A stretch of 64,000 nucleotides of DNA, taken from Squalus acanthias. Taxonomy: Eukaryota. Both the position numbers and the translations under genes were made by a program. Position 1 is the first letter of the stretch; every line of letters starts with the position of its first letter. The notes beneath the pieces are model-generated. The model was not told where the DNA came from and did no database searches. It saw nothing but the letters and a program-made list of their open reading frames with translations. This document shows, piece by piece, positions 29,610-62,170 of the stretch. Location: assembly GCA_030390025.1 (NCBI GenBank), contig CM059452.1, positions 8,494,001-8,558,000 on the forward strand. The letters run 5' to 3'.

Positions 29610-29771
29610 NNNNNNNNNNNNNNNNNNNNNNNNNNNNNNNNNNNNNNNNNNNNNNNNNNNNNNNNNNNNNNNNNNNNNNNNNNNNNNNNNNNNNNNNNNN
29701 NNNNNNNNNNNNNNNNNNNNNNNNNNNNNNNNNNNNNNNNNNNNNNNNNNNNNNNNNNNNNNNNNNNNNNN
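29610..29771. other. Assembly gap
   Basis: N run, 1.7 kb upstream of the VH leader. Confidence 1.
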
Positions 29772-31460: not shown

Positions 31461-31956
31461 ATGAGGTCGGCGATTTCTCTCAGTCTGTTGCTGGCTTTCT
31501 TATCCGGTGAGTAGTTTTTATTGTCCAAGTCTCTCACTGTTACTGTCTCAGTGTTAGTCTCTCTCTGGAATGTTACAGAGTCAGGAATCATTTCACCAGG
31601 ATTAATCCTCGGGGTTTTTGATTGTTTTTACAGGTGTCCAGTCGGATGTCGTGTTGACTCAGCCAGAGGCAGAGACCAGGAGTCCCGGAGGCTCCCTGAG
31701 ACTGACCTGTAAAACCAGCGGGTTCACTCTTGGCAGCACCTGCATGCACTGGGTCCGGCAGGTTCCCGGACAGGGGCTGGAGTGGCTGGTTAGCTACTAC
31801 AGTTCATCGAGCAAGTAACTACGCCCCAGGGATCCAGAGTCGATTTACTGCGTCCAAAGACACTTCAAACAGCATCTTCGCTTTGGACATGAAGAACCTG
31901 AGGACCGAAGACACCGCCATCTATTACTGTGCAGCAGCCGCTACAGGGGTGGATGG
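31461..31956 (+). pseudogene. IGHV: IgM VH germline-joined to D sequence (VDD-type), frameshifted: leader 31461-31506, V-D exon 31634-31956
   Basis: Leader MRSAISLSLLLAFLS(G); [48 protein letters not shown]; one extra base at AGC-AAGT-AAC (~31812-31816) gives TAA; frame resumes [15 protein letters not shown]...[16 protein letters not shown] with no RSS after YYCA. Confidence 0.93.
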
Positions 31957-31984
31957 CACAGCAGTTACTGTCAATACAAAAACC
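31957..31984 (+). other. 12-bp-spacer RSS at the 3' end of the joined VH-D
   Basis: CACAGCA-gttactgtcaat(12)-ACAAAAACC. Confidence 0.95.
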
Positions 31985-32308
31985 CTCAGCACTAATTGAG
32001 TGAGTCTGGGTCAGTGCCGCTTTCACAATCCAACTGTAGATGCAGTGAAGTCCTATTTGTGTCCAGCACTGTCCACTAGCACAGCTTAATATGGATAAAC
32101 TGTGATAATTAATCATTGATCAGTTGGTGCTTTCAATAACTGTTCATGGGTTACTCTGTGAAATATAAAACATCAGGGAATTTATAAAGAGTGAAAAGTA
32201 TCCATTGACACATTTATCATTTTATGAAGATCCATCGTGACTTTACTTTGCCTCTGGGATGTGAATATTTAAACTAATGTTGGATTTCTGTCTGTTTTAC
32301 ACAGAGCC

Positions 32309-32395
32309 GGTTATTGTGTGACCCAGCCCGGGGAATGTAACACTGTGACGTCATGGACTACTGGGGCCAAGGCACCATGGTGACGGTGACTGCAG
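32309..32395 (+). CDS. IGHJ: JH segment (32348-32395) with 5' 23-RSS (32309-32347)
   Basis: GGTTATTGT-23bp-CACTGTG, then VMDYWGQGTMVTVTA and GTAAG donor. Confidence 0.96.
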
Positions 32396-32439
32396 GTAAG
32401 AAACATTCACTCTTTCAGTAACTGTTGTATTTGTGTCTT

Positions 32440-33710
32440 TATTTTATATTTCTGTTTATTTCAATAATTCATTCATTCACTGAAACTTGGGTTCGGTGGA
32501 TTCTGTATTGAGATTTTTTGCAATGTTTCATTTGATTCTGCTGCAAAGGGATAATAGAATTAAACAGTTTCTTCAGAAAAAATGTTTTTGAGGGATTGAG
32601 TCCCTGATTGATGTGATTTGGTGTTTATCTGCTGATGAGACTGTGCGCCTGGGTTACTTTAAATACCTAACGGCTGTTGAACTGTTTGGCGTTTCTACAA
32701 TGTTTAATCTCGGTGACATCTAATGGTTGCAGGTTTTCTGATCAAATGTAAACATTATGTGATTAAATGTGTTTGAAATAAGATTGTAGGCAGAAAACAG
32801 AAAGCTTTAGCGGTCAAAAATAATCTTAAGATATTTTAATGTATTTTTATTTGTGATATGTACATTGTCATCTATTAATCTAATGTTCACCAACGGTCAT
32901 ATTCAATACGTGAAATGTTACTGTAATTAAAAACTGCATAATTCATTTTTTTTTAGCCTGAATCAGATTTAAAGTAAAATAAATTAAATTATTATAATGT
33001 AGTAATATCACCCAATATTACAACAAGCTATATCAATATTAATTTGTTAAACATGATCCGTCTACTCACAATTCTGCTGTTATTATTTTATATTTATGTT
33101 TATTTCAATAATTAATTCGTTCAGTGATGGATGGGTTCGCTGGATTCTGTATTGAGATTTTTTTGCAATGTTACATTTGATTCTGCTGAAAGGGTTTATA
33201 GAATGAAGCTGCTTCTCCACAAAACGTTCTGTTGCGGGATTCAGCCCCTCAGTGATGTGATTTGCTGTTTATCTGCTGAGGAGAGTGTGTGCCTGGGTTA
33301 CTTTGAATAACTAAAGTTTGTGAAACTGTTTGGCGTTTCTGCAATGTTTAATCTCGGTGACATCGAACTGCTGCAGGTTTTCAGATCTGTTTAAAACTGT
33401 TTGAAAGATGATTGTAGGCGGACAACAAGTAGGTTTTATAAATCAAAAATCATTTAAAAATAATTTAATGCATTTTTTTATTTAAGTGAGAGTTACAGAT
33501 TCAACTGTTAATCTATGGTTTACGGTGCTCACATTTAATAGGTGAAATGTTACTAATTACGAATTATATAATTAACAATTTGCAGGTTGAAGGAGAGTTA
33601 AATTAATATAACTCAAACGATTATAAAGTGGTAATATCGCCCAATATCACTCAGTATGCTGTAGTATTAATATTAATGTATTAAACATTATTCACCTTCC
33701 ACAATTCTGC
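32440..33710. repeat. Diverged ~650-bp tandem duplication immediately 3' of JH
   Basis: 32440-33080 and 33085-33710 share gggttcg..tggattctgtattgagattttttgcaatg and later blocks; a further partial copy at ~34860-35560. Confidence 0.8.
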
Positions 33711-35899
33711 TGTGCACTGGTCACAATTAACGTGAGCGGAGAATTTTAGAGGCTGGAGACAATTTCTGATTATGTCTGAAATTATTTTAATAACAGCAGA
33801 CTGATTCCACCGCAGTGTTCAGTTTAATGAGGGTTTGAAATTAATTGTTATCTCCCTGTTTCACACAGATGAATGACAGATTGTATTTAATTATGCATTA
33901 AATGCGAGTTGTAAATTGCAGTTTGTAAATGTAATAAATCTGCCGGGTTATTAAATTCTTACTGTGCAGCGGAAACCATGTTATTCCTTCAATATTATTT
34001 GTTGTTTGATAGCGAGACAATTATCACTAAACTAATCTTAAACAGTTTGTAAGATCATAGGCTGAGCGGTCGCTGGCAGTCAAAGAATTGTTCATATGAT
34101 TCTATTTAAATTCACGGAAGGTGCAGACTGCGTAAGGCTGGAGACAGACAAATAACCCATTGACATTCAAGCAGATTAATTTAATTACAAAAGATTAATA
34201 TTAGTTTTGAATTTAATAACAACATCCTGTCTCCCATAGCTGTGCTGTATACGGATAGAATTATAGACAGGGAACAGATTACATCTGAGATTTATGTTTA
34301 ATTCTCATTAATGTTAAATTGATCAACAAAATCTCTCCTCCATTTGCTCATTAAATTTCAGTGTCGCAGATGGTCTGATTGATTTGTTCTCCGCCAGTTT
34401 TACACTGATCATTCTGGAACTGATTTTCAATAAATAGCAGAATATATTTAATAATTAATTTACCGGCATTGTGTGAATTACTGGAGTAAAATATAAAAAG
34501 ATTGTCTGTGTTATTAAACAGCGGAGGCTCTGTTACTGACTGCAAACTGGCCGGTTGTCTTTTAATTCACGAAAATAGTATTTGTAGTTAAGATTGAGGA
34601 CAATGTTTAAACTCGAGAGCCCTGCTTTAGTAAACACACGGTGTTACAGTCCATCGGTAGTTAGTGAGATGTGACCACGGCCAGACTTTGAACTATTTAA
34701 AATAGTTCACTCCTAAATCCATCATGTGAAATCCACTCTGAGAAATGATGGAGTTTATGTTGTATCAGAGAGTTCAGAAACATGCAGAGTTTACAAGTGT
34801 GTAGATAGAGAGCGGGAATGTATTAGAAGTTAGTGACCATTTTAACTTATTCAAATGTGATTTGATTTAAGTAAAAATAATATATTTGTCTGAATGTCTT
34901 TATCTATTAATATGATTCTTAATATTTTAATATTGATAAGTGTCATGTTAATTTAATTGAAACCCTATAGTTCACAAGTTACCAGGCAGAAACAGGATTA
35001 AAATTAATATCAACTAATTTTATTATAATGCAGCTAACATCAATATTAACTTAGAATATAATATGAGTGCGAATTTATTAAACATAAATGACCTCCCACA
35101 ATTGCGTTGTATACTGGACAGGATTACAGTTACTGCAAAATCTCAAGGGTTGGAGAGAATTTTAAATTATGTCTAAAATTAATTTAGAAACAATACATGT
35201 CTTACTCAGCTGTGCTCAGCTCGAGAAGGTGTCGCCGCAGATTTTAATGAATTAACTTCGTGTTTTGCCTCGATGATTTTACCGGTTATATTTAATTATG
35301 AAATTATATTAACCCAGTGGTTCCTAGTTCGTTAAATTCTTGCTCTGTCACGGAGTCCCTGTTATATGCAGCAAATTACCCTGGAATGTGAATTATTTCA
35401 GTAAACTGGTTTTCAGGGAAGCTAAATCTTACTCGGTTTGTAAGATTGTAGACAGGGAGGGAGAAATGGTTGGAAGTCGAAGAGAGTTTTTCAAATTAAG
35501 ATCAGTTTAATTTCAGAAAACGTGCAGACTTGAGGTGGTCGGAAATTGACAAGAGATCAATTAGAAATCAGCTTCATTGAAATTGACAGATTGAAGAGAT
35601 CTATCTGCTGAGAGCACGATTGTTGCACCGTTTGTGTCTGTTCTGTTTCTGTGCGCCTGCTCACTGTGTGAGAATCAGGAGTCCTCCTGACTGGTTGCAA
35701 ACCTGCTGGTTTGTTCTCTTGTGTTTCATGGAGAACAATTCGACTCAGTTATTTCAGAAGTTTGTATCTGTGAGAAATGCGATAGTTTGACTTGAAGTTT
35801 CAGGAGGCGCCTCCGAACTGGGATCAGTAACCCAGTTTGTGATAATCAGAAGGAGCATTTCAGAAACACCTCTGGCAGACTGTAGAAGGAGCTTTAATC

Positions 35900-36350
35900 A
35901 GTTTCTAACCCGGGCCGTACCTGCCCCCAATGTGTTTGATTTTGTAATGTAGAGGGAGCGTAATACTGTATCTAACCCGTGCTGTACCTGCCCCGTGTTT
36001 CTTTGATGGAACGGTATAGAGGAAGATTTACTCTGTATCTAACTCGTGCTGTAACTGCCCCGTGACTATTTAATGGGACAGTGTAGAAGGAGCTTTACTC
36101 TGTATCTAACCCGTGCTGTACCTGCCACGGGAGTGTTTGATGGGACAGTGTAGAGGGAGCTTTACTCTGTATCTAACCCGTGCTGTACCTGCCCTGGGAG
36201 TGATTGATGGGACAATGTAGAGGGAGCTTACTCTGTATTTAAGCAGTGCGGTGTCATACCCGGAGCGTTTGTCAGTGCAGTGTAGACTTGGCTTTGCTCG
36301 GAATCAATCCCTTGCTATACCTGACAGTGCAGAGGGAGCTTTACTCTATA
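35900..36350 (+). repeat. 67-bp satellite-like repeat; inverted array at 49675-49845
   Basis: Unit AGCTTTACTCTGTATCTAACCCGTGCTGTACCTGCCCTGGGAGTGTTTGATGGGACAGTGTAGAGGG. Confidence 0.9.
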
Positions 36351-37109
36351 TTATCTGTACTGTAACAGAGCTGAGAGTGCTTTGTCCCGTGTTGCTCAAG
36401 GAACCTTAATCTGCATCCAACTAATAAAGTGTGAGTTCTCGAGCCAGATATATAAAAATAAAACTTTCCATTGCTCCGATGAAACAACCGCGCATTAATT
36501 GAGTTTAACCTCATTGCAAATAAAACTGCCCATTTTTTAATGAATTGATAAACTTTAAACATTTTGAGTATCAGATAATGATTGAATGAGATTGGCCTGA
36601 TCCTGAGCTCACTTTCAGAACAAACAGTTTCAGGAAGTGACTGTAACGCTCCAGAAAGCAGCGCCTGTTCTGATCTGATGGGAGGCTGGAAGTTATTTTG
36701 ACAATTTAAATGGAGAATGTCGAGACTCCCGCTCCAAATAACCATCATGGGAACCTTATGTTTGAAAGCATTATTTCGTTCAATTGTTTTTAAAAAGGTA
36801 ACAGGCCGGGACAAACTCGGGTGAGGTGCAGCTATTGGACTGGGTCACAGCACAAGGCTCACAGTCACTGAGCCGCACCTCTGTGAAACATTTAAAGAGA
36901 AACAGTCAGCCTGCGATGAGTCGTCATTCACAATAAGCTTTAAGACTCTGTGACGGTATCCGATTGAATCATTTGAGTCAAATTCCTCAGTTCCTTTATT
37001 TTAAATATCCTCTTGCATTATAACAAACAATAAAATAGATCTGATAGAGGTGTTCAACATTATGAAGCGTTTCCTTCCATTAAATCGGGAAGAACTAATT
37101 CCGCTGAGC

Positions 37110-38260
37110 CGTGTAGAATCACAGAATCTCAGAGCACAGAAGGGGCCATTCGGCCCGTCTTGCCTGTGCTGGCTCTGAAAGAGCTGTCCAATCAAATCCC
37201 AGCTTTTCCTCGTAACCCTGCAAATGAGTCCTCTTCAAGAACATGTCCAGTTGCCTCGTGCATTCCAGAACTTAACAACCCTCTGTTTGAAAAAAATATC
37301 CTAATTTCCCCTCTAGTTCTTTTGCCAATTATTTTAAATCTGTGACCTTTGGTTACCGACCTACTCGCCAGAGGAAACCGTTTCTCCCGACTTGCTCTGA
37401 CAAAACCTCTCTCAATTTTGTACAGCTCTATTAAGTCTCCCCTTAATCTTCTCTACTCCAAGGAACAATCCCAGTTTTTCCAATCTCTCCGCATAACTGA
37501 AGTCTCTCATCCCTGGCATCATCCTGGTCAACCTCCTCTGTACCCTCTCCAAGGCCTTGTCATTCTTCCTAAATTGTGGTGTCAGAATTGTATACACTAC
37601 TCCATCTGATGCCTAACCAGTGATTTGTAAATGTTTAGCAGGACTTCCTTGTTTCAATGCTCCTTTTACAATGGCAAGTATCTCACACACGTCCGTAACT
37701 GCCTGATCAACTTGCCCTGCCACCTTCACAGATTTGTGAATATGCACCCCAGGTCCCTCTGCTCTTGCACCCCCTTAAAATAGTACCACTTAGATTAAAC
37801 TGTCTCTCCCTGTTTTTCCTCCCAAAGTCCATCACTTCTCACGTAACTGCAATATATTGCATCAGCAACATGTCTACCCATTTCACCAGTCTGTCTATGT
37901 CCTCCTGAAGTCCGCTGCTATCCTCCTCCCGAGTTACTACGTTGCCAAGTTTTGCATCATCTGCGAACTTGGAAACTATACTCCCTATAAACAGGTCCAG
38001 GTAATTGATATATAAAACATGAAAAGCAATGGTCCTAATACCGACCCAAGGGGGACCCCACTGCATACTTCTCTCCAGTCAGAAAAACATCCGTTCACCA
38101 CTACTCTCTGCCTCCTCTCCCTCAGCCAATTACATACCCAAGTTACCTCCATCCTTTAATGTGTTTCTATTTTCCGAATAAGTCTTTTATGAGATACTTT
38201 ATAAAATGCCATTTGAAAGTATGTATGTACAACATCTACTGCAACACCATCATCAACCCT
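37110..38260 (-). mobile_element. CR1 LINE fragment in the J-C intron
   Basis: SKFADDAKLG; KALERVQRRLTRM. Confidence 0.85.
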
Positions 38261-40056
38261 CTCTGTTACTTCACACTGTAGACCGAGCTTTCAGTATCTG
38301 ACCAATAAGCCGCAGGTGTTTGAGTTATCCGCACAAACCAGAAGCCAGAGTTTCCCACATCAGCAGTCAGCACATTAGTTATTGTTTGTCCTTCCTTACA
38401 TAGAACCCGCTGATAACCAATCGATTTATAATGTTTAAGGATTGCCAATATTAGATATTTAGAGAAGAAACCTGTCCCGATGTTTAGATTATTTTCGGTA
38501 CAAACAGCAACAAGAAGTGACTGTAACGACCCAGAAAGCAGCGCCTGTTCTCACTGGTGGGAGGTTGGAAAGTAATTTGGAAAATGAAATGGAGCATTTA
38601 AAGAGCATCGTTCCATATAACCGGCTTTGGGAATCGTATTTAATTCGGTTTATTTAATTGAGTGAGTGGGAGGAGGAAAGTCAGGAGACATCCATTCAGT
38701 AGAATGGGATAGAGCACAAGTCACACTGCATCGCTCTCCCTCCAATTCTGAGAAGGAAAGAGAGAGACTCGAATCAATCCCGATTCATCTAAAGCTTGAA
38801 TCTTAGAAACCAGGCTGTGCAAAAGTTCCCTATTCAAATCTGTGCGCTGAATTATTCCGCTCACATTTTAAAGGAGACTTCAACCATTTATTGTAAACGT
38901 CCTTTATTGTCATGGGAACAAAGAAGATTTAGATGAGGTCTGATAGAGGGGTTTGGAATTATGAAGGGTTTTATGAAGGGATTCGGGAAACATATTTCCC
39001 GGGTCGGTGAGTTGGTGAGTAAATGGCACTGATTGAAAATCAGCAGCAACAGAATGAAGGGAGAGGGTATTATTCTACTTTTCTACACAGGGGGCTGTTG
39101 AACATGGGATGTCCTATCAGAAAGAGGGCTGCATGCAGAATCCATAATAGCTCGATAAAATTGTACAGTTGAGAAGATTGGGAATTGGAAGGTGCACGGG
39201 ATTGGTGGAGAGATCTTTCAGAGGCGTGATTGGCCGAATAGCCTCCTTCTGTGCTGTAAAGTTGTATTATTTTATAATTCTGGTCATGCTTTATAAACAT
39301 GCTGGGATTTGTTTTAAAGGTAATACAACTAGTAGATCTAGCTGTAGGAGTTGTGTGATTAGGAGAACTAATCCCACCGCTATTCAAACAAGTCTATCCC
39401 CTGAAAACAACAACTTGCATTTATATAGCGCCTTTAACGTAGTAAAACGTCCCAAGACGATTCACAGGAGCGTCAGCAGATACAATCTGACACCGAGCCA
39501 CATAAGGAGATATCATTTTATTCTTTAGTATGGTTGGTAGTTACTCTGACAGTTGACCAAAAGCTTGGTCAAAGAGGTAGGTTTTAAGGCAGCATCTTAC
39601 AATGGAGAGATGACGACACTTTGATATCATGGAATGGCCTGATTCTGTGCTGATAATAAGAGGCTGACAGCAAAAGGATGTAGGGAGGAGCTCAGTGGAC
39701 AGAATGTGAAAGAATCTAATGTGAAAGTGGTTGGGGAATGAGGGAGTGTTCCATAACAGGGGATCAAGAGCTGGAGGAAGTCCACGATACAATATTCCGG
39801 CATTCACTCGGTATAAAGGGGCCTCATGGACAGAATGCCCCTTTCAGACTCCTGACTTTTCTTATGTACAAGACTGGAGTCACATGAAGGCATTTCACGT
39901 CGGGTCTCACAATTCACAGAAACTCAAATGCTGATCTAGGTTTTGATCGGCAAATGATGGAATTAGTTCATCCTGTAGTCACATTTCGAGTTGTTTGGTT
40001 ATGTTATAAGCACGGATTACAGAGTCTAACTTGTTCAATTGGCCATTCTTTCCCAG

Positions 40057-40356
40057 CGACACAGTCTCCTCCCACCCTCTACGCCCTGCTCTCCTCCTGT
40101 GAACAACCCAACACCGGCGGCCCCGTCACGTTCGGCTGTTTGGCGATGGACTACTTCCCGGAAATCACCAGCCTTTCCTGGAGTAAAGATAAAGAGCCGA
40201 TCACCACTGGATTGAAGACCTACCCGTCAGTGTTCAACAAGCAGGGAACCTACACCCTGAGCAGCCAGTTAACCATCACCGAGTCAGAGGTGGGGAGCAG
40301 CGCCATCTACTGCCAGGTTCGACGAAGTGGGTCGGACTGGAGCGTCAAAATGCCAG
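40057..40356 (+). CDS. IGHM: IgM constant exon CH1
   Basis: AG/GT-bounded 300-nt phase-1 exon [16 protein letters not shown]...[11 protein letters not shown]...SWSKD...YTLSSQL...IYCQV. Confidence 0.95.
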
Positions 40357-40384
40357 GTTAGTGTTGTGGGATACAGGGGGAAAC

Positions 40385-41205
40385 TGTGAAAAGCAGAGAA
40401 GTTATGTTCAACTTCTATACAACTTTGTTTAGACCAGACTTAGAGTACTGTGCACAGGTCTGATCTCCATATCACACTAAGAGCACTGTGCACAGGTCTG
40501 GTCTCCATATCACACTTAGAGTACTGTGTACAGGTCTGGTCTCCATATCACACTAAGAGCACTGTGTACAGGTCTGGTCTCCATATCACATTTAGAGCAC
40601 TTTGTACAGGCCTGGTCTCCATATAACACTTAGTGTACTGCCTATAGTTTTGGTTTCCATATCACACTTAGTGTACTGTGTACAGGCCTGGTCTCCATAT
40701 TATAAGAATGATACAGAGGCACTGGAGAAGTGCAAAAAAGATTTACAAGGACGATACCAGAAAGAAAAATTGTAACCGTCAGGAATGATTGAACGGGTTT
40801 GGGATCTTTTCTCTAGAAACGAGAAGTCTGAGGGTTGACCGAATAGAGGTCTTTAAAATTCTGAAGGGGTTTGTAAGGTTAGACGTAGAGACAATATTTC
40901 TGCTTGAGGAGGAGCCCGATACTAGGGGCCATAAATATAAGATTATCACTAATAAATCAATAGGGAATTCAGGAGAAACTTCTTTACCCAGAGAGTGGGT
41001 AGAATGTGGAACTCGCTACCACATGGAGTAGTTGAGGCGAATAGCATAGATGTGTTTCAGGGGAATCTAGATAAGTACAGGAGGGAGAAAGGAATAGAAG
41101 GTTATGTTGATGAGGGAGATGAAGTAGGGAGAGAGGAGGCTCATGTGGAGCATAAACACCGACCTGTTGGGCCGAGTGGCCTGTTTCTGTTTTGTAGATT
41201 CTATG
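40385..41205 (+). mobile_element. CR1 3' fragment containing a 38-39-bp minisatellite (40440-40700)
   Basis: About 7 copies of TAGAGTACTGTGTACAGGTCTGGTCTCCATATCACACT inside CR1 sequence. Confidence 0.8.
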
Positions 41206-41278
41206 TAAAAAAACACTTTACAATTCTTAATTGTTTGGATTGCAACAAATAATCCCAATAAAATGTATTTTCTTGCAG

Positions 41279-41590
41279 ATCGTGTGGTACATCATCCAAC
41301 TGTGATCCTCACCCTGAGTTCCAGTGAAGAAATCATCAGCAGCAGGTCTGCAACCGCCGTGTGTTCAATCATCGATTTCCGTCCAAACTCAATGACCGTG
41401 AATTGGCTGAAGAAAGGACAACTCATGGATTCGGGCTTCGTCACCTCTCCCGTCTTTGAAGTGAACGGGAACTTCTCGGCGACCAGTCGGCTGACATTCC
41501 CCGCCGGGGAATGGTTCGCCGGCTCGGTCTATACCTGCCAGGTCTCTCATCAAGGGGACATCCAAAGCCGAAACATCACCAGATCTCCGG
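41279..41590 (+). CDS. IGHM: IgM constant exon CH2
   Basis: 312-nt phase-1 exon HPTVILT...[12 protein letters not shown]...VNWLKKG...GEWF...YTCQVSH. Confidence 0.95.
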
Positions 41591-41894
41591 GTAAGAGACA
41601 CAATCCCGAGAAGTCCCAGACCATTCTGACCGCTGATCTCTGCCAGCAATTTTATTGGAATTCGTAAAAAGCACAGAAATATTTCTAATTTCCAATCACA
41701 CAGTTTGTGTTTCCTTCCGATGTCAGTGCTGACTCAGGGTTCCTCACGGTTCAGGATTCCAGCACTTCGCCAAAGGTTTCCCTCAGCTGTGATGTCAGTG
41801 AGTGAGGTGTCCTCAGTCTCAGGTTTACCCTGAGAAAGCTCTATTTCTAATTTACAATCATGCTGTTTGTGTTTTCTTCCGATATAAAATAAAA

Positions 41895-42295
41895 GAAAGA
41901 ACTGCCTTTACATAGCGCCTTTCCCGACCTCTGGACGTCCCAAAGCGCTTTACTGCCAAGGAAGTACTTCCTGAAATGTGGTCACTGTTGTAATGTAGAA
42001 ATCGCGGCGGCCAATTTGCAGACAGTAAGGTCCCACAAACAGCAATGTAATAATGATCAGATAATTTTATTATTTGGTGATGGATAGGTATTGACCAGGC
42101 CACCTGGGAGAACTGCCCCGCTCTTCCTCCAAATAGAGCCATGGGATCGTTTATGTCCAACTGAGAGAGCAGACGTCGGTTTAACGTCTGATCCAGAAGG
42201 CGACAATGCAGCGCTCCCTCAGTGCTGCACTGGGAGTGTCAGCTCACATTTTGTGTTCAAGTATCTGGAGTGCGACTTGAACCCACGATCTTCTG
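41895..42295 (-). mobile_element. Shark tRNA-derived SINE (HE1-like), near full length
   Basis: B-box-like GGTTCAAGTC near 42280 on the minus strand; L2-like tail ending in (TTTC)n. Confidence 0.75.
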
Positions 42296-42494
42296 AATCA
42301 GGATTCCTCATGGCTCAGGATTCCATAACCTCGCCAAAGAAGGTTTCCCTCTGCTCTGATGTCAGAGAGTACATGAGGTGTCCTTGGTCTCAGGTTAATC
42401 CTGAGTTGGCTGATCATATTCGGAGCGACAGTAGGTGTCTGGAACCCCTTACTGGTAACTGTCTCGGGACCCACTGCTAGAAAGGACATCTACC

Positions 42495-43040
42495 CTATTT
42501 AGAGAACTGCGTTCAATTCTGGGCACCGCACATCAGGATGGATATACTGGCTTTAGAGGGATGCAACGCAAATTCACCCGAATCATACCGGGGCTGAAAT
42601 GGTTAAATTATGAGGACAGGTTGCACAGAATAGGCTTGTATTCCTTTGAGTATAGAAGATTAAGAGGTGATCTAATTGAGGTGTTTAAGTTGATAAATGG
42701 AATTGATAGGGGAGATAGAGAGAAACTATTTCCTCTGGTGCGGGAGTCCAGAACAAGGGGCATAACCTTAAAATTAGAACCGAGCCGTTCAGGGGTGATG
42801 TCAGGAAGCACTTCTTCACACAAAGGACAGTGGAAATCTGGAACTCTCTCCCCCAAAAGCTGTTGAGGCTGGGGGTCAACGGAAAATTTCAAAACTGAGA
42901 TTGATAGATTTTTGTTAGGCAAAGGTATCAAGGGTTACAGAAACAAGGCGGGTAGATGGTGTTGAGGTGTAGATCAGCCATGATCTCATTGAATGGCGGA
43001 ACAGGCTGGATGGGCTGAATGGCCTGCTCCTGTTCCCATG
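42495..43040 (+). mobile_element. CR1 3' fragment
   Basis: QRKFTRIIPGL...RRLRGDLIEVFK. Confidence 0.85.
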
Positions 43041-43742
43041 TTGTTATTACTGCCCTGCGGTCATATTTCCTTCTGACTCTCTCACCAGACATGTTAAGTG
43101 CTCACTAATGACAGAGATGAAGAAACTACTTCACATCGGCATTACACATTATTCACCACCACAAAGACCCCTTGGAACTCCATTCTCCCGACCTTTCACT
43201 TCTCCTCTGACGGGGGCTGCAACTGGTTCCTGCACATTTTCATCGCCCCCAAAATCGCAACAAGACACCAGAAAATTAACTTTGTTTCCTGTTGCACCTA
43301 AAATCCTGGATATCATTTGACACTCGTTTTGAACCAGTGTAATTTTCGTGTAGAGCTCTTGACCCTGGGGGCGGAGCCATTATAATGAGCGGGAATGCGT
43401 TCGGGCACAAGGATCTAGAGACGGGCGTAAAGGAGCAAGGGATTTCAGGAAGAGCGCTACTCAGTGCGTAACACAATTGCGCCCGAATTTATTCATTTTT
43501 TACGCCGGGTATTTGCTTCACAGCCCATTACAGGAGGCTCTGGGAGCAAATACACAGGAAATGTTAAAGAGTCTCCCGGAATCGTTGTCAATTCGTTGTC
43601 CTTCCAATAACGATGGTGTTTAAGCAACAACGAGAGGTTGATATCTCAAAGGTGATTTATTCTCCCTGAGAGAGTGAAGGCTGAATACTGGTGTCCTGAT
43701 TCTGAAGATGAAGCTTTGCTTGACTTTCATTTCTGTTCACAG

Positions 43743-44051
43743 ATGGTTCCTCATGCAACGATCCAGAAATCACTCTTCCGCAACCGTCACTAGAACAGGT
43801 CTTACTGGAGGCGACGGTGACCTTAACCTGCGTCGTGTCTAATGCTCCTTATGGAGTCAACGTGTCCTGGACCCGAGAAAAGGAGACTTTGAAATCAGAG
43901 ATTGCCGTCCAACCCGGAGAGGCTCCCAACAGCGTGATCAGCAACTTAAACATCTCGACACAAGCCTGGCTGAGTGGGGATGAGTTCTACTGCGTGGTGA
44001 GCCATCAGGATATGCCGACTCCTATAAGAGATTCCATCCACAAGGAAAAAG
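43743..44051 (+). CDS. IGHM: IgM constant exon CH3
   Basis: 309-nt phase-1 exon [29 protein letters not shown]...VSW...[14 protein letters not shown]. Confidence 0.95.
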
Positions 44052-44569
44052 GTGAGCGGTGAGATTGTAGCAATAAGTGAGACTCTGTGACTATTTCCGG
44101 TGCTTGTGCACGGCCCAATTCGTTCTATTAAGTGTTTTAATGGACTGCTCTGATAATTCAATGGGTAATTCCACTAACTAAACCCTCTGGGACCCGAGAT
44201 GATGCATTTAAGGGGAAGCTGGATAAGTCAATGAGGGAAAAAGGAATAGAAGGATATGTTATTAGGGTTAGATGAAGTAAGGTGGGAGGAGTCTCGTGTG
44301 GAGCATAAACAGCGGCATTGACCAGTTGGGCCGAATGGTCTGTTTCTATGATGTAAATTCTATATAATTTTCCAGTCCAACTCTTCAAGCTCCCAGAGAG
44401 AAGGATTGTATCCCGCTCTGCTCCGGGCTGGAAAACCGGACAGGACACAGAGGGGAAAAGGGAATCCTTTAAAATTCAGCGCAAAGCACATTTCTCTCAC
44501 ATCTAACCGCCGGTTTCATTGTCTCTGGAATTCTCCAGTTTATTGACCTTTATTGTAATTGTTCTGCAG

Positions 44570-44961
44570 CTAAAGATCCGCGGGAACCGTCCGTGTCTGT
44601 CCTCCTGCCCCCGGCAGAAGAAGTCTCCGCTCAGAGGTTCGTCAGCCTCACCTGCTTAGTGAGAGGTTTCTCCCCCCGAGAGATCTTCGTCAAGTGGACC
44701 GTCAATGACAAGCCGGTGAATTCCGGCAACTACAAGAACACCGAGGTGATGGCGGAGAACGGCAGCAGTTCCTTCTTCATGTACAGCCTGTTATCCATTG
44801 CAGCGGAGGAGTGGGCCAGCGGCGCTTCTTACTCCTGTGTGGTGGGACATGAAGCGATCCCCTTGAAGATCATCAACAGAACGGTTAATAAATCCAGCGG
44901 TAAACCCAGTTTTGTCAACATTTCCCTTGTTCTGATGGACACCGTCAATTCTTGTCAATGA
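44570..44961 (+). CDS. IGHM: IgM constant exon CH4 plus secretory tailpiece
   Basis: [10 protein letters not shown]...[18 protein letters not shown]...YSCVVGHE...[24 protein letters not shown]; internal donor G|GTAAA at 44899/44900; tailpiece N-glycan site and penultimate Cys. Confidence 0.97.
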
Positions 44962-44989
44962 GAATCTCTCGATTGCATTTCAGTTCTTG

Positions 44990-45005
44990 AATAAAAACCA
45001 ATAAA
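44990..45005 (+). terminator. Secretory-form polyadenylation signals
   Basis: Two AATAAA about 30-45 nt after the tailpiece stop. Confidence 0.8.
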
Positions 45006-45394
45006 GGCCTTTTCTTCCAATCGTCAGTTACACACACAGCCGCTCAATTAATTTTGTTTCCCAGTTTTGCCAAGGGGAGGGCTGTTTATCTGAAGCAGGA
45101 TATTTGCCGGTCTCGGGCCCAAGGCTTGTACAGCCAGCGCTCCCAGCTCAGATACACCACGGGTTAGAGACAGACTGAAGCTCTTTCATGACAGGATTCC
45201 TCAAAGTCACTTCAGCAACTTTCCTCCCGCTGGGGGGAATCAAAAAGTTCCCATTTCAGACAAACAAACGCAGCACATTTAGATCTCGGTGTCCCTGTTT
45301 CTCGTGTTGTCCATCCCTTCAGAATTGGGGCCAGTTTTATTTTGCAGCATCGCAACCTCTGGGATCTGAAATAAGGCCACACACGAACACGAAC

Positions 45395-46837
45395 TGTAAC
45401 CCCCACTCCCCCACCAGAGAGAGGGGAAAGGGCAATTGTTAACCCACTGTACCCCACTCCCCCACCAGAGAGAGGGGAAAGGGCAATTGTTAACCCACTG
45501 TACCTCCCACTCCCCCACCAGAGAGAGGGGAAAGGGCAATTGTTAACCCACTGTACCCCAACACCCCCACCAGAGAGAGGGGAAAGGGCAATTGTTAACC
45601 CGCTGTACCTCCCACTCCCCCACCAGAGAGAGGGGAAAGGGTAATTGTTAACCCACTGTACCCCCACTCCCCCACCAGAGAGAGGGGAAAGGGCAATTGT
45701 TAACCCACTGTACCCCCACTCCCCCACCAGAGAGAGGAGAAAGGGCAATTGTTAACCCACTGTACCTCCCACTCCCCCACCAGAGAGAGGGGAAAGGGCA
45801 ATTGTTAACCCACTGTACCTCCCACTCCCCCACCAGAGAGAGGGGAAAGGGCAATTGTTAACCCACTGTACCTCCCACTCCCCCACCAGAGAGAGGGGAA
45901 AGGGCAATTGTTAACCCACTGTACCCCCCACTCCCCCACCAGAGAGAGGGGAAAGGGCAATTGTTAACCCACTGTACCTCCCACTCCCCCACCAGAGAGA
46001 GGGGAAAGGGCAATTGTTAACCCACTGTACCCCCCACTCCCCCACCAGAGAGAGGGGAAAGGGCAATTGTTAACCCACTGTACCCCCACTCCCCCACCAG
46101 AGAGAGGGGAAAGGGCAATTGTTAACCCACTGTACCCCCACTCCCCCACCAGAGAGAGGGGAAAGGGCAATTGTTAACCCACTGTACCCCCACTCCCCCA
46201 CCAGAGAGAGGGGAAAGGGCAATTGTTAACCCACTGTACCCCCACTCCCCCACCAGAGAGAGGGGAAAGGGCAATTGTTAACCCACTGTACCTCCCACTC
46301 CCCCACCAGAGAGAGGGGAAAGGGCAATTGTTAACCCACTGTACCCCCACTCCCCCACCAGAGAGAGGGGAAAGGGCAATTGTTAACCCACTGTACCCAC
46401 CACTCCCCCACCAGAGAGAGGGGAAAGGGCAATTGTTAACCCACTGTACCCCCACTCCCCCACCAGAGAGAGGGGAAAGGGCAATTGTTAACCCACTGTA
46501 CCCCCACTCCCCCACCAGAGAGAGGGGAAAGGGCAATTGTTAACCCACTGTACCCCCCACTCCCCCACCAGAGAGAGGGAAAGGGCAATTGTTAACCCAC
46601 TGTACCCCCCACTCCCCCACCAGAGAGAGGGGAAAGGACAATTGTTAACCCACTGTACCCCCACTCCCCCACCAGAGAGGGGAAAGGGCAATTGTTAACC
46701 CACTGTACCTCCCACTCCCCCACCAGAGAGAGGGAAAGGGCCATTGTTAACCCACTGTACCCCCACTCCCCCACCAGAGAGGGGAAAGGGTAATTGTGAA
46801 GCCACTGTACCCCCACTCCCCCACCAGAGAGAGGGGA
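45395..46837. repeat. ~52-bp G/C-run minisatellite, about 27 copies
   Basis: Unit CCCCACTCCCCCACCAGAGAGAGGGGAAAGGGCAATTGTTAACCCACTGTAC. Confidence 0.97.
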
Positions 46838-47169
46838 GGTGAACCAATCTCTATTATATGAACTCAGTTGCCATCAGTAAAAAGTCAGCTTTAACTCACA
46901 GTCTAAAAACGTTAAAGTTGCCGGATGAGAATCATATTGTAAAATAAATATTTATTCAACAACTTATCTTTAACTAGTGTTTGGGGTAAATCTGTCCCTG
47001 TTATTCATAAACTAACAGATTGAATTTTAATAGTCCAAATTTGAACTGGTGATTGAATCCTCTGCGGGTTTCTCACGGTTGTGTCCCTGAAGATTCTGAG
47101 GCCCATCGGCTGACGTCACATTGCGTCTCACACAGAACACATTTACACAGAGCGGGGAAGAATGCGTGT

Positions 47170-47900
47170 AAAGTGAGTGTGTCTGTGTTTATGTGTAAGT
47201 GCGTTTGCGATTTTGTGTAAGTGTGTGTGTTTTGTGTAAGTGCACACTTACACATAAACACACACAGACTTACACATAAACACACGCATTAACACATTGA
47301 CATAGAATATTACACATACCCAGAATATAATACACACCGTCATTGTCAGACCCAGTTATTGGTACTCTCTGAAACTTTGAACAGTACCGGAAATACACAC
47401 GCGCACACCCTTAAACAAAGCACACACAAACACATGCATTAACACACACACACTTACACACGCATAAACTCACACATGAACACAAACACACACACATACA
47501 AACACACACACTTACATGCAAACACACACATGTACACATAAACACACACACGCTTACACCTGAACATACACAAACACTTACACATAACCATAAACATACA
47601 CATAAACACACACATGGACGCACATACACAAAAACAAACACACAATTAAACATAAACACAATTACAAATAAACACACACACTTATACAAAGACTTACACA
47701 TAAACATACACAAACTGACAAAAATACACGCACACTTACACATAATCACACACTTACACATAAATACACATATATAGAATTACACAAACACACAATTACA
47801 CAAACACACAAACACGCAAACACACTTACACAGCAACACACACATTAACACACAAACACAGACTAAAACAAAACAAGAGATTGTCAGACACACATACGCA
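47170..47900. repeat. Degenerate (CA)/(TG)-rich simple repeat
   Basis: Runs of acac/taca/aaac. Confidence 0.9.
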
Positions 47901-48549
47901 AACACGAATGCGCGAAAAAACCTCAGGCTATAGACGAATGTAGAATTAAAATGCACTTTTTGAACGAACACAGTTTCCAACGATTGTTCTGAATGAATAA
48001 TTCTTGATACCATAACATCTCACATTTCTCTATTCTGGTCCTACACATACACTGAATCAATGTTCTTGTTGGAAACTGATACAAGTTAATTATGTTCAGA
48101 GCATTGCCATAACAAATAAATAAACAAGATTATAACTCACATCTGATCTCTTACCCAGCCCCCTTGACAGTCTCCAAATAAGTAGCTATCTAAACCTATC
48201 GTTAAAATAATCGATATCAATCAGTAAACCTCCCTCGATATTTCATCATATTATTCCCGAATGATAGATTGTACGAAATTGATGCAAAATCAATTAGCGT
48301 GTGACATTGAAGAAAAAACTGTCGTTTTTTCCAACACGGACTATAGGAGGATCATAAAGGAAGAGCGACTGTGGAGTTAGGAACAGAGATAGATTGCTGA
48401 GAGAGATTAACTTAACACAAGATATACATTGAAAATTCAATTAGAGAACAAACTAATACCTTAAGGAAAAGAAGAGAATATATAATAATAATATGATATC
48501 TTGGATTAATAAACGATCTGAATATATTTCCGCCTCTACATCCCCGTAG

Positions 48550-48826
48550 ATTCCTCAGACCACATCTTGATTGAAGACTATGAGGAAGAGAGCGGCAACA
48601 TCTGGACAACCGCTTCCACATTCATCATCCTGTTCTTCCTGAGCATGTCCTACAGCGCTGCCGTCACTCTAGTGAAGGTGAGAAGATTCAATCCACTCAC
48701 ACTTCGATCTGACTGAAGCGGTTTGACAAATCTCTAAAAGTTTCATTGATAAATACCCTGAGATAAATGCCCCAAACCACTAAATCTCTGCTTCATTCTT
48801 TTATCCCTCTTTTACAGATCAAGTGA
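48550..48826 (+). CDS. IGHM: IgM membrane exons TM1 (48550-48677) and TM2 (48818-48826)
   Basis: DSSDHILIEDYEEESGNIWTTASTFIILFFLSMSYSAAVTLVK|IK* (antigen-receptor TM motif, KIK tail); canonical splice sites; AATAAA at ~48890 and ~49283; absent from the ORF track. Confidence 0.95.
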
Positions 48827-51170: not shown

Positions 51171-52277
51171 CATTGTGGGAAACTCTGTCCTTCATGGCTG
51201 CTTAAATCACTGATAGGGTGTGAGCCAACTGAACCACTGAATAGCAATTTATTACAGCCTCCCTCGGGGAAACTGCCACACAGTCAGAGTTCTCCTTACA
51301 GGCCAATAGCACTTGGTCAGATTTATTGCAGGTTAACTGACGCACTGAGGCAGCCAGTGACCGGAACAGCAAGAATAGCGAAAGAGTTCAGAAATCTCTC
51401 TATTTTCTCCACAGATCTCCCGCAACATTCAACTAATTTTCTCTTTCATGTCCTCTCCCATTCGGTTGTGGGTTTCCAACACCTCTGTTTTCAAGCTTGG
51501 AAAGTTGCATCTAAATATAGTGAAACTAAAATAGAGTAATGGGTCGGAGGATTTCCCGAGCACCTCAATACATTAAGTACTTGGTTTTGAAGGAATACAC
51601 GAGATGAAATAACACACACAGGCAGAATATGGGAACCAGATCCTGTCCCATTAACGGAGCGACCAGCAGGAGATTCCTGGCGCTGTCAGCAACCTCTTTC
51701 TCGGAGCTGATCTTAACATTATTCACTGACCTGTCTGCAGTACTTGTCTATGGGAAGCTAGTTTAGAGCGGTTCTGAATTAATATGCCGTGCAGCAGTAA
51801 AGGTTTTACATCGTTAAACTAAAGACTGGAAGAAGAAAGTCCATACGATTAGTAAAGAGTGGAGACAAGGGATGAGAAGAGACAGGCAGGCCCGGAAATT
51901 ACATCAAAAGACAAAAGGTGAGTTGTGGAACCACAGACATGATCGCTGAAGTTCATTTTTAGTATAAATGCAAGTTGAAATCACAAACTAATATAATTCG
52001 GCCAGGGGACCTCACCTGTTCTTGTTGAGTGCTGCGTTTTTTTGTACTTTTAAGGAGGTCCGTGTGACTCTCACTGTGGAGACTGAATTATTGCTTTTGG
52101 TTATCGGTGTGAGAGCGCCCTCTCAGTGTGCGTTTTGGTACAGTAGGGACGTTGAATAGTTACAATTAATGCTCATTGAGGTTCCTTCCAGATATTGGGC
52201 TTCTGTTGGCCACTGCTTGAAGGAGTCTCCAGAACTCAGTTCTGCCGAAAACATTCCTGGTTTCCCATGGAAACAGA

Positions 52278-55386: not shown

Positions 55387-55858
55387 ATGTGCTCCCCGTG
55401 TTCCATACTGATAATAATGGTCGTGCTGTCCAGTGAGTTCATATGTAAATGGTCATTGTGTGTTTCACGGATTATCCTTACTCCCAGACTTTTGACACAT
55501 TCTGTGTTTTGTTACAGGAACGAGTGGCAAAAAATCAGTGTCCCAGGATCCGTCTGAATTAATGGTTCAGGAAGGAAAAAGCATAATATTGAACTGCAGT
55601 TACCCGGCAGCTGCTCCAACTCTGTTCGGGTACATCCAGTATCCCGGGGAAGCTCCGAGATATTTACTGAGGATATATAGCTCGGGGACGGTAGACCAGT
55701 CTCCAGATTTCCCAGGCCGGTTTTCTGCTGTTTTGCACAGAGACAGCAAAACGGTCCCTTTAAATATCACCGCGGTTCTTGTCACCGACAGCGCCGTGTA
55801 TTTCTGTGCCATGAGCCCCACACTGCTGCAGAGATATAGCGGATCCCGTACAAAAACC
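55387..55858 (+). CDS. TRAV/TRDV: TCR alpha/delta-type V segment 3, open but lacking the conserved FR2 Trp: leader 55387-55432, V exon 55518-55818, RSS 55819-55858
   Basis: Leader MCSPCSILIIMVVLS; SVSQDPSELMVQEGKSIILNC...LFGYIQYPG (W->G)...DSAVYFCAMS; CACACTG-24bp-ACAAAAACC. Confidence 0.88.
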
Positions 55859-57170: not shown

Positions 57171-57683
57171 ATGCGGCTACTCAGCATCTGGGCTGTGTGG
57201 GGGCATTTCTGACAGGTAATTGTGGACCAAACACATTTCATCTTTTCTCTCATTTCTAACATGGTTTGAATCTGAATTTTAAACACCCGCCGGTCTGATC
57301 TTTTCCTGTTTGAACATGTTTTTCAGATCTGAGTCTTGGAGATTCTGTCACTCAGCCGCTGTCCTCAGGAGTTAAGACAGAAGGAGAAGCGGTGACTGTA
57401 AACTGTACCTATGGCACTAAATGGAGCACCTTTAATTATTTATATTGGTACCGGAACCACCCAGACACACAGCCCGAGTTTATACTGTGGAAGGATCATG
57501 ATGGAGTTGATGGTGTTGAGCATAAAGCAGATTTTGGTAAAACCCGTTTCTCTGCAGAAATCCAGACCTGGACTAAATTCACCAGTTTAACCATCTCGGG
57601 GCTGCAGCTGACCGACACTGCAGTTTATTACTGCGCCCTGAGACCACACTGATGGAAACCAGTTAAACCCTGGTACAGAAACT
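57171..57683 (+). pseudogene. TRAV/TRDV: TCR alpha/delta-type V segment 4: intact V exon 57327-57644 and 23-RSS, leader 57171-57215 one base short
   Basis: DSVTQPLSSGVKTEGEAVTVNC...LYWYR...DTAVYYCALR; CACACTG-23bp-ACAGAAACT; leader is 45 nt versus 46 nt in paralog V1, with the loss in a G run. Confidence 0.88.
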
Positions 57684-58394: not shown

Positions 58395-58739
58395 TGTTTT
58401 TGTACGGGGCTCCCTCTGGTTCCTGTCACTGTGTCTCTCAGCCTGCAGTGATACACCGCGCTGACAGACAGCTGTAGGCCGCGGATGGTGAAATTCCCCT
58501 CACTTTCTGAAATGTCGTGAAATGCGGAAATTCGAGCCCCCGTGCCCTCTGCTTTGAAAACATCTCCCTAAGAAGGACTGTAGATCAGCAATGTTGGCCC
58601 TTGTCGCGGTCCTGACGGTACAGTTGTAAGGAATGTGAAGGAGCAGTGGTCGAATAGCTGTAATTACTGGTCACCGAGTCTCCTTCAAACTGTATCGCTG
58701 CAAGCGGCCCCTGTGAGACCGAGTCCGCACAACTAACAA
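58395..58739 (-). pseudogene. TCR alpha/delta-type pseudo-V 5 (exon 58739-58434) with near-perfect 23-RSS (58433-58395)
   Basis: ADSVSQGPLAAIQFEGDSVTSNYSY...LQLYRQ...(frameshift)TLLIYSPS*...GNFTIRGLQLSVSAVYHCRLR; first Cys and Trp lost; CACAGTG-23bp-ACAAAAACA; no leader found; absent from the ORF track. Confidence 0.9.
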
Positions 58740-59574
58740 CTACAGCAATATAGAAATACACAACTTTAAACTTTTCTTATCATTTTATTATAACTGATAG
58801 CATCAAGGTGACGGAATATACAGGAAATAGAGGGAAAATACAGTTAAAAGGAAGATTCTCTATGGCAGTGATACGTGCAAGAGGGAAGATTGTGTAACTT
58901 GTAAACTTTACCAGTTAAGAGAGCCGCAGCTGTGACGAATGAATAAAAAGTAACTCCTAACATGTTTGCAGAGAGTTGATAACAGATTTGAACAGAACGG
59001 GTTAAACCTGAAATATTTTAGTCAAGACTTGGGAAGGTGTTGATTGATATCCGGCGTCTCTGCCGATTGGTTCATCCCTGACAGAGTCAACAGGTGAGAT
59101 CCAAGCAGTTCACAGCTCCTTTTTACTCCAATTCTTCCAATCAACTCACAGCTCCTTTGTTCGTCTCTTTATGACGTCTGTGGTCAAAATGCTCTTGCTT
59201 ACTGAACAAGCGACTGGGAAGAAATAGAGTGAGTGCGTAATTAAGGGATTATACCGCATCAGAAATAATGAGCGGCTTTAATCAGCTATAATCTTAATCT
59301 TTGAGAGCCAATAGCTGGCAATCGTGTTTTTATACATGACCAAAAACCTTAAATCTCCTCAATGGCCTCATTCTAAGCTGTATGTAATACAATGCGCCAG
59401 CAGAGGGCGCCAAACTCAAGAATGATAATTAAAAAGTCATGTGATGCAAACGCCAAGGCCAACAGCAATCGAAGCCTGAATGAGGTCACAATGGGGACGC
59501 CCCCTGCAGTGTGTGGGTGGAACAATGAGCTGAACAGCCCGGGTTACCGCTCTCCTTCTCAATCTCTGCCTCAT

Positions 59575-59977: not shown

Positions 59978-60548
59978 GAGAGATTCAGTCAATTTCTAAT
60001 AATACTGGCGGCTGTGTTGAACAGTAAGTATTGGATTATATTTAAAACACAGGTTAGCTGGTTGATGCAAAGAGCGTGTGCAGGGATTTAGTGCAATTAC
60101 CGATCAGAAATATCCACATGATGGACAGCTGTGTAGATGGAGGGTTATCCACTCTCATACAGATAGACACAAGTTTCGATTTAATCTTCTGCTCTTCTGT
60201 TCCCCTATCTTCACAGGCGGGCTGTGTGCAGATCCAGTAACTCAGTCTCCGGTGACAATTGCCGTGTCAACAGGGGGTTCGGTGCAGTTAGATTGTGAAT
60301 ATACAATCACGGATATTGACTACATGCAATGGTATCGGCAGCAATCGGCACAGCCACCAAGCTGGATAATTAGCAAAACAGTAGCACTGAAGGGAGACGA
60401 AATCTCAGGACAATATCTGGCAGCTGCTAATACGTCTAGAAAGTACGGTTACCTCAATATAAACAGCCTGAGTGTGGAGGACGGAGAGGTCTATTACTGT
60501 GCAGTGAGGCACAGCGTCAGATAAAAGTAAAGGCCCCGGACAAAAACC
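59978..60548 (+). CDS. TRAV/TRDV: TCR alpha/delta-type V segment 6: leader ~59978-60023 lacking ATG, V exon 60217-60509, 23-RSS 60510-60548
   Basis: Leader (E)RFSQFLIILAAVLN|GTAAGT; DPVTQSPVTIAVSTGGSVQLDC...MQWYRQ...EDGEVYYCAVR; CACAGCG-23bp-ACAAAAACC. Confidence 0.87.
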
Positions 60549-60674: not shown

Positions 60675-61032
60675 TGTCTTTGCCCAAATCAGCGGAGAAC
60701 CGGTCTGGGAAATCTGGAGACTTCACTCCCTGCCCCGAGCTGTATCTCCTCATTAAATAACTCGGATCTTCCCCGGGGATACTGGTTGTACCAGAAGAGG
60801 TAGGGAAATCTATCGGCTGTGGAGTAACTAGAGTTCAGTATTAAGATCTGTCCTTCCTGAACCGTTAATTCAGGTGGATCCTGGGAAAATGAGGCTTCCC
60901 CATTGTAACAAAATACTGAATCTGTCAGAAGTCTGGGAGTAAATATAACCCATGAAATACATACGATATTTTAAACATAGACTCACCGGGCAGCACGACC
61001 ATTATTATCAGTAAGAAACATGGGGAGCGCAT
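60675..61032 (-). pseudogene. TCR pseudo-V 7, 3'-truncated paralog of V3
   Basis: Leader MRSPCFLLIIMVVLP(G) 61032-60987; acceptor AG->AA; SQDPPELTVQEGQILILNS (C->S)...LFWYNQYP, frameshift, SPDFPDRFSA; no YYC and no RSS. Confidence 0.85.
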
Positions 61033-61189
61033 GGTGTCTGGTTTAGATGGGAGTCTCCGGCTCTGATACCAGAACAACATTAACTATTGGTCACTGGCCC
61101 CATCTCACAGACTGACGCTGCTAAAGGGCGAACATTGGCTTTAATCCTCGTCCAGTTCTGAGGAGAACAATTTCACTCCGTTCTCTGAT

Positions 61190-61920: not shown

Positions 61921-62170
61921 TGTGGGGATATATATTTGTGTTCAACTGCCCTGATTTGCTTCACAGGTAAGTGTTGAGGGTGACGGGCTGATTCTGGGCG
62001 GTAAACAGAGTGAAGTGACATTGTTTAATTTAATATCGCTCTGGGCTCTTGCAGGACATGGGCGAGGAGACTCCGGTTCACAGACACCGGCTGTAACCAC
62101 AGAAAATGAAGGAGACGATGTTCAGTTGTATTCTAATTATACAGCCACAAGCATCAATCATATCTATCTA
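61921..62170 (+). pseudogene. TCR pseudo-V 8, 5' fragment
   Basis: Leader-like exon ending ACAG|GTAAGT (61966) without ATG; acceptor at 62054, then GHGRGDSGSQTPAVTTENEGDDVQLYSNY, which breaks into a (TATC)n/(TA)n microsatellite. Confidence 0.65.

Follow-up and report, generated by a model that had tools for sequence, protein, structure and literature searches.

A pre-joined and frameshifted IgM minicluster in Squalus acanthias, one of many near-identical units among T cell receptor alpha/delta V segments

We analyzed a window of 64,000 nucleotides from scaffold C29 of the Squalus acanthias genome (C29:8,494,001-8,558,000; plain coordinates below are window positions), which contains an immunoglobulin M (IgM) heavy-chain gene flanked on both sides by T cell receptor (TCR) V segments that are alpha/delta in type. 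Our best explanation, which we consider highly probable, is that the gene is an IgM minicluster whose V is pre-joined and frameshifted, that it is one of at least 31 near-identical units lying among TCR alpha/delta Vs, and that these units likely spread by segmental duplication as one block together with the Vs.

All exons of the IgM gene are on the forward strand. A leader exon (31461-31506) precedes a heavy-chain V (VH) exon that runs on into D1- and D2-like pieces (VDD; 31634-31956). Next come a recombination signal sequence (RSS) with a 12-base spacer (31957-31984) and a 23-spacer RSS with a single JH (32309-32395 together; the JH itself, VMDYWGQGTMVTVTA, occupies 32348-32395). The constant region consists of Cmu1 (40057-40356), Cmu2 (41279-41590), Cmu3 (43743-44051), a Cmu4 exon with a secretory tail ending in SCQ and a stop (44570-44961, with the splice donor to the membrane form after 44899), and two transmembrane (TM) exons, TM1 (48550-48677) and TM2 (48818-48826, encoding IK and a stop). 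Every splice site is GT/AG, and the constant frames of both the secreted and the membrane form are open. Leader, VDD and JH fall within 31461-32395 and Cmu1 begins 7.7 kb further on, as in shark IgM miniclusters, where one VH, the Ds and one JH lie within about 2 kb, kilobases upstream of Cmu1 (PMC2435157). Four C exons, a tail with a penultimate Cys, and TM1 plus TM2 are all in frame. When the Cmu4 exon with its tail was compared with solved structures, mu chains were among the best matches, with scores summed over domains; such searches are weak classifiers, and multi-domain single-chain variable fragment (scFv) constructs head their lists. A preliminary description of this window had proposed a complete cluster of leader, V, JH, Cmu1-4, secretory tail, TM1 and TM2 between TCR Vs. 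The layout and the open constant frames held up, with every exon found; the completeness did not extend to the V, which is frameshifted with a TAA codon and pre-joined to Ds.

D1- and D2-like pieces follow the V without a break up to the 12-spacer RSS, and a separate JH keeps its 23-spacer RSS, which makes this a VDD-J cluster. We matched the junction pieces against unjoined sister clusters, and the heptamer and nonamer of the 12-spacer RSS equal the D2 3' signal of those clusters. Joining is common in the array: among 30 VH loci, eight are unjoined as far as read and 22 are partly or fully joined (four VDD-J, four VD-DJ, nine fully joined, two V-DDJ, two V-D-DJ and one V-DD-J). Germline-joined shark IgH clusters (VD-J, VD-DJ and VDJ) are known (review PMC5192425), and the window gene resembles them in the fusion of V to D pieces, the retained RSS and the separate JH. 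Unlike them, it has a frameshifted V as assembled, and its junction was seen only once, with no occurrence among the contigs listed. Somatic VDD-J intermediates also exist (PMC2435157). Junctions are identical within the sister pairs L015/L018 and L010/L011, and one joined form is present in both a DNA run and a likely RNA run; judging from these sister copies, the join in the window may also be of germline origin.

The frameshift results from one extra base in complementarity-determining region 2 (CDR2), which creates a TAA at 31816-31818, so that leader and V do not form an open frame in the assembly. Up to the Cys codon the V exon measures 297 nucleotides, compared to 296 in 25 of the 30 VH loci, and the extra base doubles an adjacent A. 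As assembled, the window IgM is a pseudogene whose constant region remains intact: its layout is complete and its V is broken. We also considered that the extra base is an assembly error and that the gene is functional, needing one D-to-J join to yield a normal mu chain. The doubled A, the intact constant region and the two intact RSS speak in favor of this, and the leader of a neighboring TCR V in the same block (Vd, below) is broken by another private one-base change, in a run of Gs. Further, no contig examined from four public runs carries the extra base where contigs cover 31815-31819. As these contigs pool many paralogues and none of those listed spans the junction of this copy, they cannot decide the matter. 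Against an error, private one-base indels are rare among the copies (20, compared to 368 private substitutions in three aligned regions), and VH disruption occurs elsewhere, in five of the 30 loci, three by stop codons. We judge a functional gene possible but unlikely. This alternative bears only on the state of the window copy and is compatible with duplication of the block.

Five TCR-type V exons flank the IgM gene. Upstream, on the reverse strand, are Va (5319-5670), with an open frame, a leader upstream and a 23-spacer RSS, and Vb (13996-14345), whose 23-spacer RSS has the heptamer CACCGCG and whose frame is open except that the codon directly preceding the RSS is a stop. Downstream, on the forward strand, are Vc (55387-55858), with a leader, an open exon in which Gly replaces the conserved Trp, and a 24-spacer RSS; Vd (57171-57683), with an open exon and a 23-spacer RSS and a leader that is one base short and thus frameshifted in the window copy only; and Ve (60217-60548), with an open exon and a 23-spacer RSS, no leader ATG that we could find, and a piece of a long interspersed nuclear element (LINE) just upstream. 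These exons at 5.3, 14.0, 55.4, 57.2 and 60.2 kb, and broken ones at 52.1, 58.4, 60.7 and 62.1 kb, bear out the V positions of the preliminary description. The link it gave from TM2 to the following V, about 6.6 kb without a gap, was confirmed as well: 6,561 bases separate TM2 from the ATG, and none is N.

The family assignment of the Vs comes mainly from a tree in which 57 of 66 rows were kept. Those dropped as redundant were six VH-like Vs from scaffold C911, one V each from C8 and C75, and one identical to Ve. A supported clade (99/96) that unites this genome's IgL and IgH Vs with TCR-gamma-type Vs leaves out all of Va to Ve; the C8 Vs in it are labelled TCR gamma from a CAYW motif. The tree check that had been proposed came out in favor of the alpha/delta type. 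Vd clusters with Vs from C911 and with a TCR gene model of whale shark (97/94), and Ve is placed near the root without strong support. Searches against solved structures returned many TCR alpha chains among the single-domain matches of Vc and gave no clear assignment for Vd or for a profile of 23 Vs. RSS spacers fit the same picture of V segments: in 84 RSS called on C29, 62 spacers are of 23 bases, 19 of 24 and three of 22, one RSS belongs to a VH, and none has a 12-base spacer. The 24-base spacers, noted for V family F0 and Vc in the 464-kb region around the window, are found mostly in one intact V family, so they may represent a functional variant and not a sign of decay.

The IgM gene is not a lone insert, a point that the preliminary description had missed. 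A genome search with Cmu4 yielded at least 40 matches that are 96-100% identical, and at least 31 of these lie on C29, from 5.97 to 10.27 Mb; 40 of 58 candidates were scored, so the copy counts are lower bounds. The 31 copies on C29 lie on both strands (18 forward and 13 reverse) with a median spacing of 103 kb, in an array that spans 5.96-10.33 Mb and of which we read about 1.2 Mb. Within 464 kb around the window we found four Cmu exon sets, one lone TM1 and 116 V matches, three of them VH, distributed over both strands (61 reverse, 55 forward); a wider query set found 127. At least 55 of the 113 TCR-type matches have an open exon and an RSS with a spacer of 22-24 bases. Twenty spaced 10-kb samples of the array contained 42 TCR-type matches, with at least one in 12 of the 20; extrapolated over 4.36 Mb, with fragments counted in, this corresponds to about 900 (bootstrap 500-1,350). 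The V field is patchy, and three V-free stretches contain zinc-finger motifs. At seven of eight further clusters sampled, a TCR V was present within the 10 kb read downstream. Two more divergent IgM genes, on C130 and C988, served as controls and showed no TCR V within 40 kb each; a further control, a VH on C3, had no Cmu and no TCR V in the 40 kb that follow it.

Sequence around the IgM gene recurs together with it. The stretch from base 610 to the window end (610-64000) has an inverted copy at C29:8,749,401-8,821,860, about 70 kb long, which extends about 5.8 kb beyond the window end. It keeps the order Va, Vb, IgM, Vc, Vd, Ve of the window, in blocks that are 89-98% identical, and bridges both stretches of N. 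A second copy (C29:8,645,742-8,682,748) matches the window from 29.8 kb onward. The upstream link, which had been noted to cross a gap at 29610-29771, is bridged by the collinear paralogue, where 184 bases stand in place of 162 N. Vc has 21 copies in the genome at 93% identity or more and Vd has 15 at 96% or more. Of the 20 Vc copies on C29, 15 lie 10.8-13.9 kb downstream of a Cmu4 on the same strand, compared to a mean of 0.7 and a maximum of 6 in 100,000 random placements. Likewise, 11 of 14 Vd copies on C29 lie 12.6-16.4 kb downstream of a same-strand Cmu4; in the three others, the TM1 upstream is on the same strand in two and on the opposite strand in one. Over 12 blocks, divergence is 3.1% for Cmu3-4, 3.1% for TM and 2.9% for Vd, as expected if these parts were copied together. 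A tandem repeat of 52 bases in about 28 copies lies between Cmu4 and TM1 (45393-46837); it is also present, at variable length, in the sister clusters compared, and a block boundary at C29:8,433.5 kb is at such a repeat.

The V families of the window also occur beside a TCR core, which is on another scaffold. C-delta and C-alpha are each single-copy, and both are on C911 (863,720 bases, of which about 330 kb were read, in pieces). This scaffold begins with IgM C exons, and TCR Vs continue as far as about 260 kb. They are followed by VH-like Vs at 381-519 kb, a D at 557.9 kb with 12- and 23-spacer signals and 14 J; one C exon lies at 583 kb, many J are found at 680-778 kb, and the other C is at 782 kb. 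The labels delta and alpha follow from this order and from the D. The D, J and C segments that the preliminary description had wished to see located were found on C911. Window-type Vs are present there beside D-delta, J-delta, C-delta, J-alpha and C-alpha. The first 24 kb of C911, with IgM C exons and the V of the block at 0.5-24 kb, are 94-97% identical to C29:8,454,972-8,473,559.

V segments of a further TCR type lie near the window. Pairs of a NAR-TCR V and a supporting V are found 35-55 kb past each window end (C29:8,438,846-8,443,257 and 8,592,011-8,601,565). For one of these NAR-type Vs, VNAR structures were the best matches, and the NAR-type and supporting Vs pair with the two V domains (100/99) in a gene model from Mustelus, one that also has a TCR constant region. 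NAR-TCR has been described as a TCR delta chain (PMC5931798). The suggestion that this is a shared B/T locus therefore stands, on the alpha/delta-type Vs, the NAR-TCR pairs nearby and the same families on the scaffold with the D-J-C core. One NAR-type V (C29:8,596,551-8,596,883, reverse strand), adjoining an unjoined NAR V and supporting V, is already fused to a J-like end that has a splice donor; a germline-joined NARTCR V is listed for great white shark (Table S1, PMC12227049).

The C29 TCR Vs could instead be orphons that were copied along with IgM and are too distant or unlinked from the D-J-C core to be used. The core does sit on another scaffold, five of six window Vs downstream of IgM are broken or leaderless and the sixth lacks the conserved Trp, and four of the 15 Vd copies are broken. 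However, 11 of the 15 Vd copies are open, with a ratio of nonsynonymous to synonymous differences (pN/pS) of about 0.55, compared to 0.21-0.49 for the Cmu exons, all on small counts. The high proportion of open exons with RSS in the 464-kb region also speaks for usable Vs, as does the core scaffold, which opens with the same block of IgM and V. Moreover, a single sequence carries both the V field and a TCR alpha gene model in great white shark, in stingray and in epaulette shark. That the C29 TCR Vs are orphons is improbable on this evidence, and they may be used in T cells.

The preliminary description had also raised the idea that the cluster is an intermediate in the entry of IgH Vs into the TCR delta locus. 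A full IgH unit among TCR Vs invites this idea, and the eight unjoined sister clusters keep a 23-spacer VH able to join D-delta. Shark TCR delta chains are known to use IgH-type Vs, among them TAILV, which is a lone V with a 23-spacer RSS and without its own JH-Cmu, upstream of D-delta. The window V is likewise an IgH-type sequence inside a TCR alpha/delta region. Unlike a TAILV, it ends in a 12-spacer RSS and has its own JH and Cmu. The VH-like Vs at C911:381,000-519,500 fit the TAILV description: at least 12 are lone and upstream of D-delta, and all nine examined are open with a 23-spacer RSS. They form their own clade (100/99) and share 57-64% protein identity with the IgM VH, which indicates that this array was not recently drawn from the IgM clusters. 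In the 70 kb read of that 140-kb zone we found no recent lone copy of an IgM VH (>90% identity, 23-spacer RSS, no JH-Cmu). IgM-V/TCR delta chimeras have been reported (PMC5931798), and use of TAILV and other IgH Vs by shark TCR delta (Deiss 2019, Criscitiello 2010) is cited in PMC12227049 and PMC5931798. For the window copy the idea fails: its 23-spacer RSS is lost, its frame is shifted, joining to D-delta or J-delta is forbidden under the 12/23 rule, and the VH-like family placed so that it could serve D-delta is a separate one. We consider it very unlikely that this cluster is such an intermediate. That the IgM-to-TCR V junction is a misassembly is barely credible even in so repetitive a region, as the same junction is present in 15 copies that differ mutually by 1-6% and the arrangement has been published in independent genomes.

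Duplication as one block with the Vs is the explanation we prefer, and several observations weigh against it, in addition to the contigs that lack the extra CDR2 base. How far two copies differ at Vd is not predicted by their distance at Cmu (Mantel rho 0.21, p 0.22) or at TM (rho 0.25, p 0.17), although Cmu and TM agree with each other (rho 0.76, p 0.0005). This discordance means that the copies are mosaic or the tree too star-like and leaves a one-step history of duplication unsupported; either low power or subsequent exchange among the copies may be at play. Sixteen of the 31 Cmu4 copies have no listed Vc at 10.8-13.9 kb downstream, and the V tree contains no TCR beta V. C29 yielded no TCR C exon, and its array gives way to V-free sequence at either end. 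As the core is on a separate scaffold and the array on C29 ends in this way, physical linkage of C29 and C911 is something we infer rather than something assembled. A satellite common to the end of C911 and the edge of the C29 array was looked for and not found, and a search with the marker PSMB5, which gave no match on C29 or C911 among 28 proteasome-family matches, was uninformative.

The intact IgM gene among TCR Vs, which had seemed unusual, has published counterparts. Flajnik et al. (2025) describe TCR alpha/delta V exons between IgH clusters in the elasmobranch antigen receptor complex (AgRC; PMC12227049). Table S1 of that paper has nine IgM constant-region rows among TCR V rows on great white shark chr27, and in great white shark and stingray IgM constant genes interleave with TCR V and NAR-TCR V. 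Close Ig-TCR linkage was also reported in elephant shark (PMC3964593). The C29 array resembles the AgRC in having IgM miniclusters linked to TCR alpha/delta with TCR and NAR-TCR Vs between them; since such a mixed locus is already published, the window is a further example. Here, by comparison, at least 31 copies are 96-100% identical at Cmu4. The AgRC paper gives gene models, and in the parts examined we found no IgM + V duplication unit, count of about 900 Vs or 12/23 analysis (PMC12227049). Duplication of IgM and TCR V as one block was also not described in the literature searched or under the terms searched in PMC12227049, a partial coverage that makes this absence weak evidence.

Remaining features of the window and related loci are as follows. 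Four further TCR V remnants accompany the five Vs: a 3' end with a 22-spacer RSS (52093-52239, reverse), a broken V with a 23-spacer RSS (58395-58740, reverse), a broken, frameshifted V in which no RSS was found (60707-61050, reverse) and a truncated fragment (62057-62170, forward). The first IgM cluster of the C29 array (C29:5,960.9-5,962.1 kb) carries a second VH family, which has a different leader and is in the VD-D-J configuration; this VH is 54% identical in protein to the common VH, and the Cmu exons behind it are near-identical to the others. At C29:8,430,318-8,464,536 there are a lone TM1 (reverse) and a Cmu1-4-TM set (forward) with JH and no V; a NAR V and a supporting V lie between them, an arrangement that resembles the outcome of an inversion or insertion that disrupted two clusters. 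Among the TCR Vs of C911, at 158-161 kb, are decayed fragments resembling Cmu2 (53-69% identity), likely a relic of an older IgH. The IgM-like gene at C130:696-704 kb has a duplicated Cmu3-Cmu4 pair. Large arrays of V-J-joined, light-chain-like exons are present on C3553, C13 (52.9-54.8 Mb) and C262, with dozens each on C3553 and C13. Mustelus asterias has several TCR-constant-like gene models on different contigs, compared to one C-delta and one C-alpha here.

How B and T cells would draw on such an array can be proposed from its signals. In B cells, RAG would join V, D, D and J within one cluster, in line with described within-cluster rearrangement (PMC2435157, PMC5192425). In T cells, a 23-spacer V from between clusters would be joined to the D-delta/J-delta or J-alpha core by deletion or inversion, depending on the strand of the V, and the IgM genes in between would be bystanders. 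Unequal and inverted duplication of blocks would produce both the alternation and the mixed strands. The window V could not take part as a TCR delta donor, since it ends in a 12-spacer RSS and the 5' signals of D-delta and J-delta also have 12-base spacers, a combination barred by the 12/23 rule. The only compatible in-line join left here would be that of VDD to its own JH, and its product would stop in CDR2.

Two wider readings follow. It is about an even bet that the block of IgM and TCR V is a unit that grows both repertoires, in which about 900 TCR Vs, about half of them open, are served by one D-J-C core over several megabases and their number is tied to that of the IgM genes. Since 23-spacer TCR Vs lie tens of kilobases from the 12-spacer D1 of unjoined clusters, RAG might also make chimeric joins between TCR V and IgM. 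Such a dual-repertoire block combined with RAG-made TCR-V/IgM heavy chains, a mirror of the IgH-V/TCR delta chains, is improbable when the two are taken jointly.

What this genome contributes is the repeated block with its near-identical copies, which together with the size of the V field deserves further attention. Ordinary repertoire sequencing could test whether T cells use TCR Vs that lie megabases from the core, between antibody genes. It could also test how B and T cells keep apart two 12/23-compatible sets of segments that alternate every 100 kb or so.

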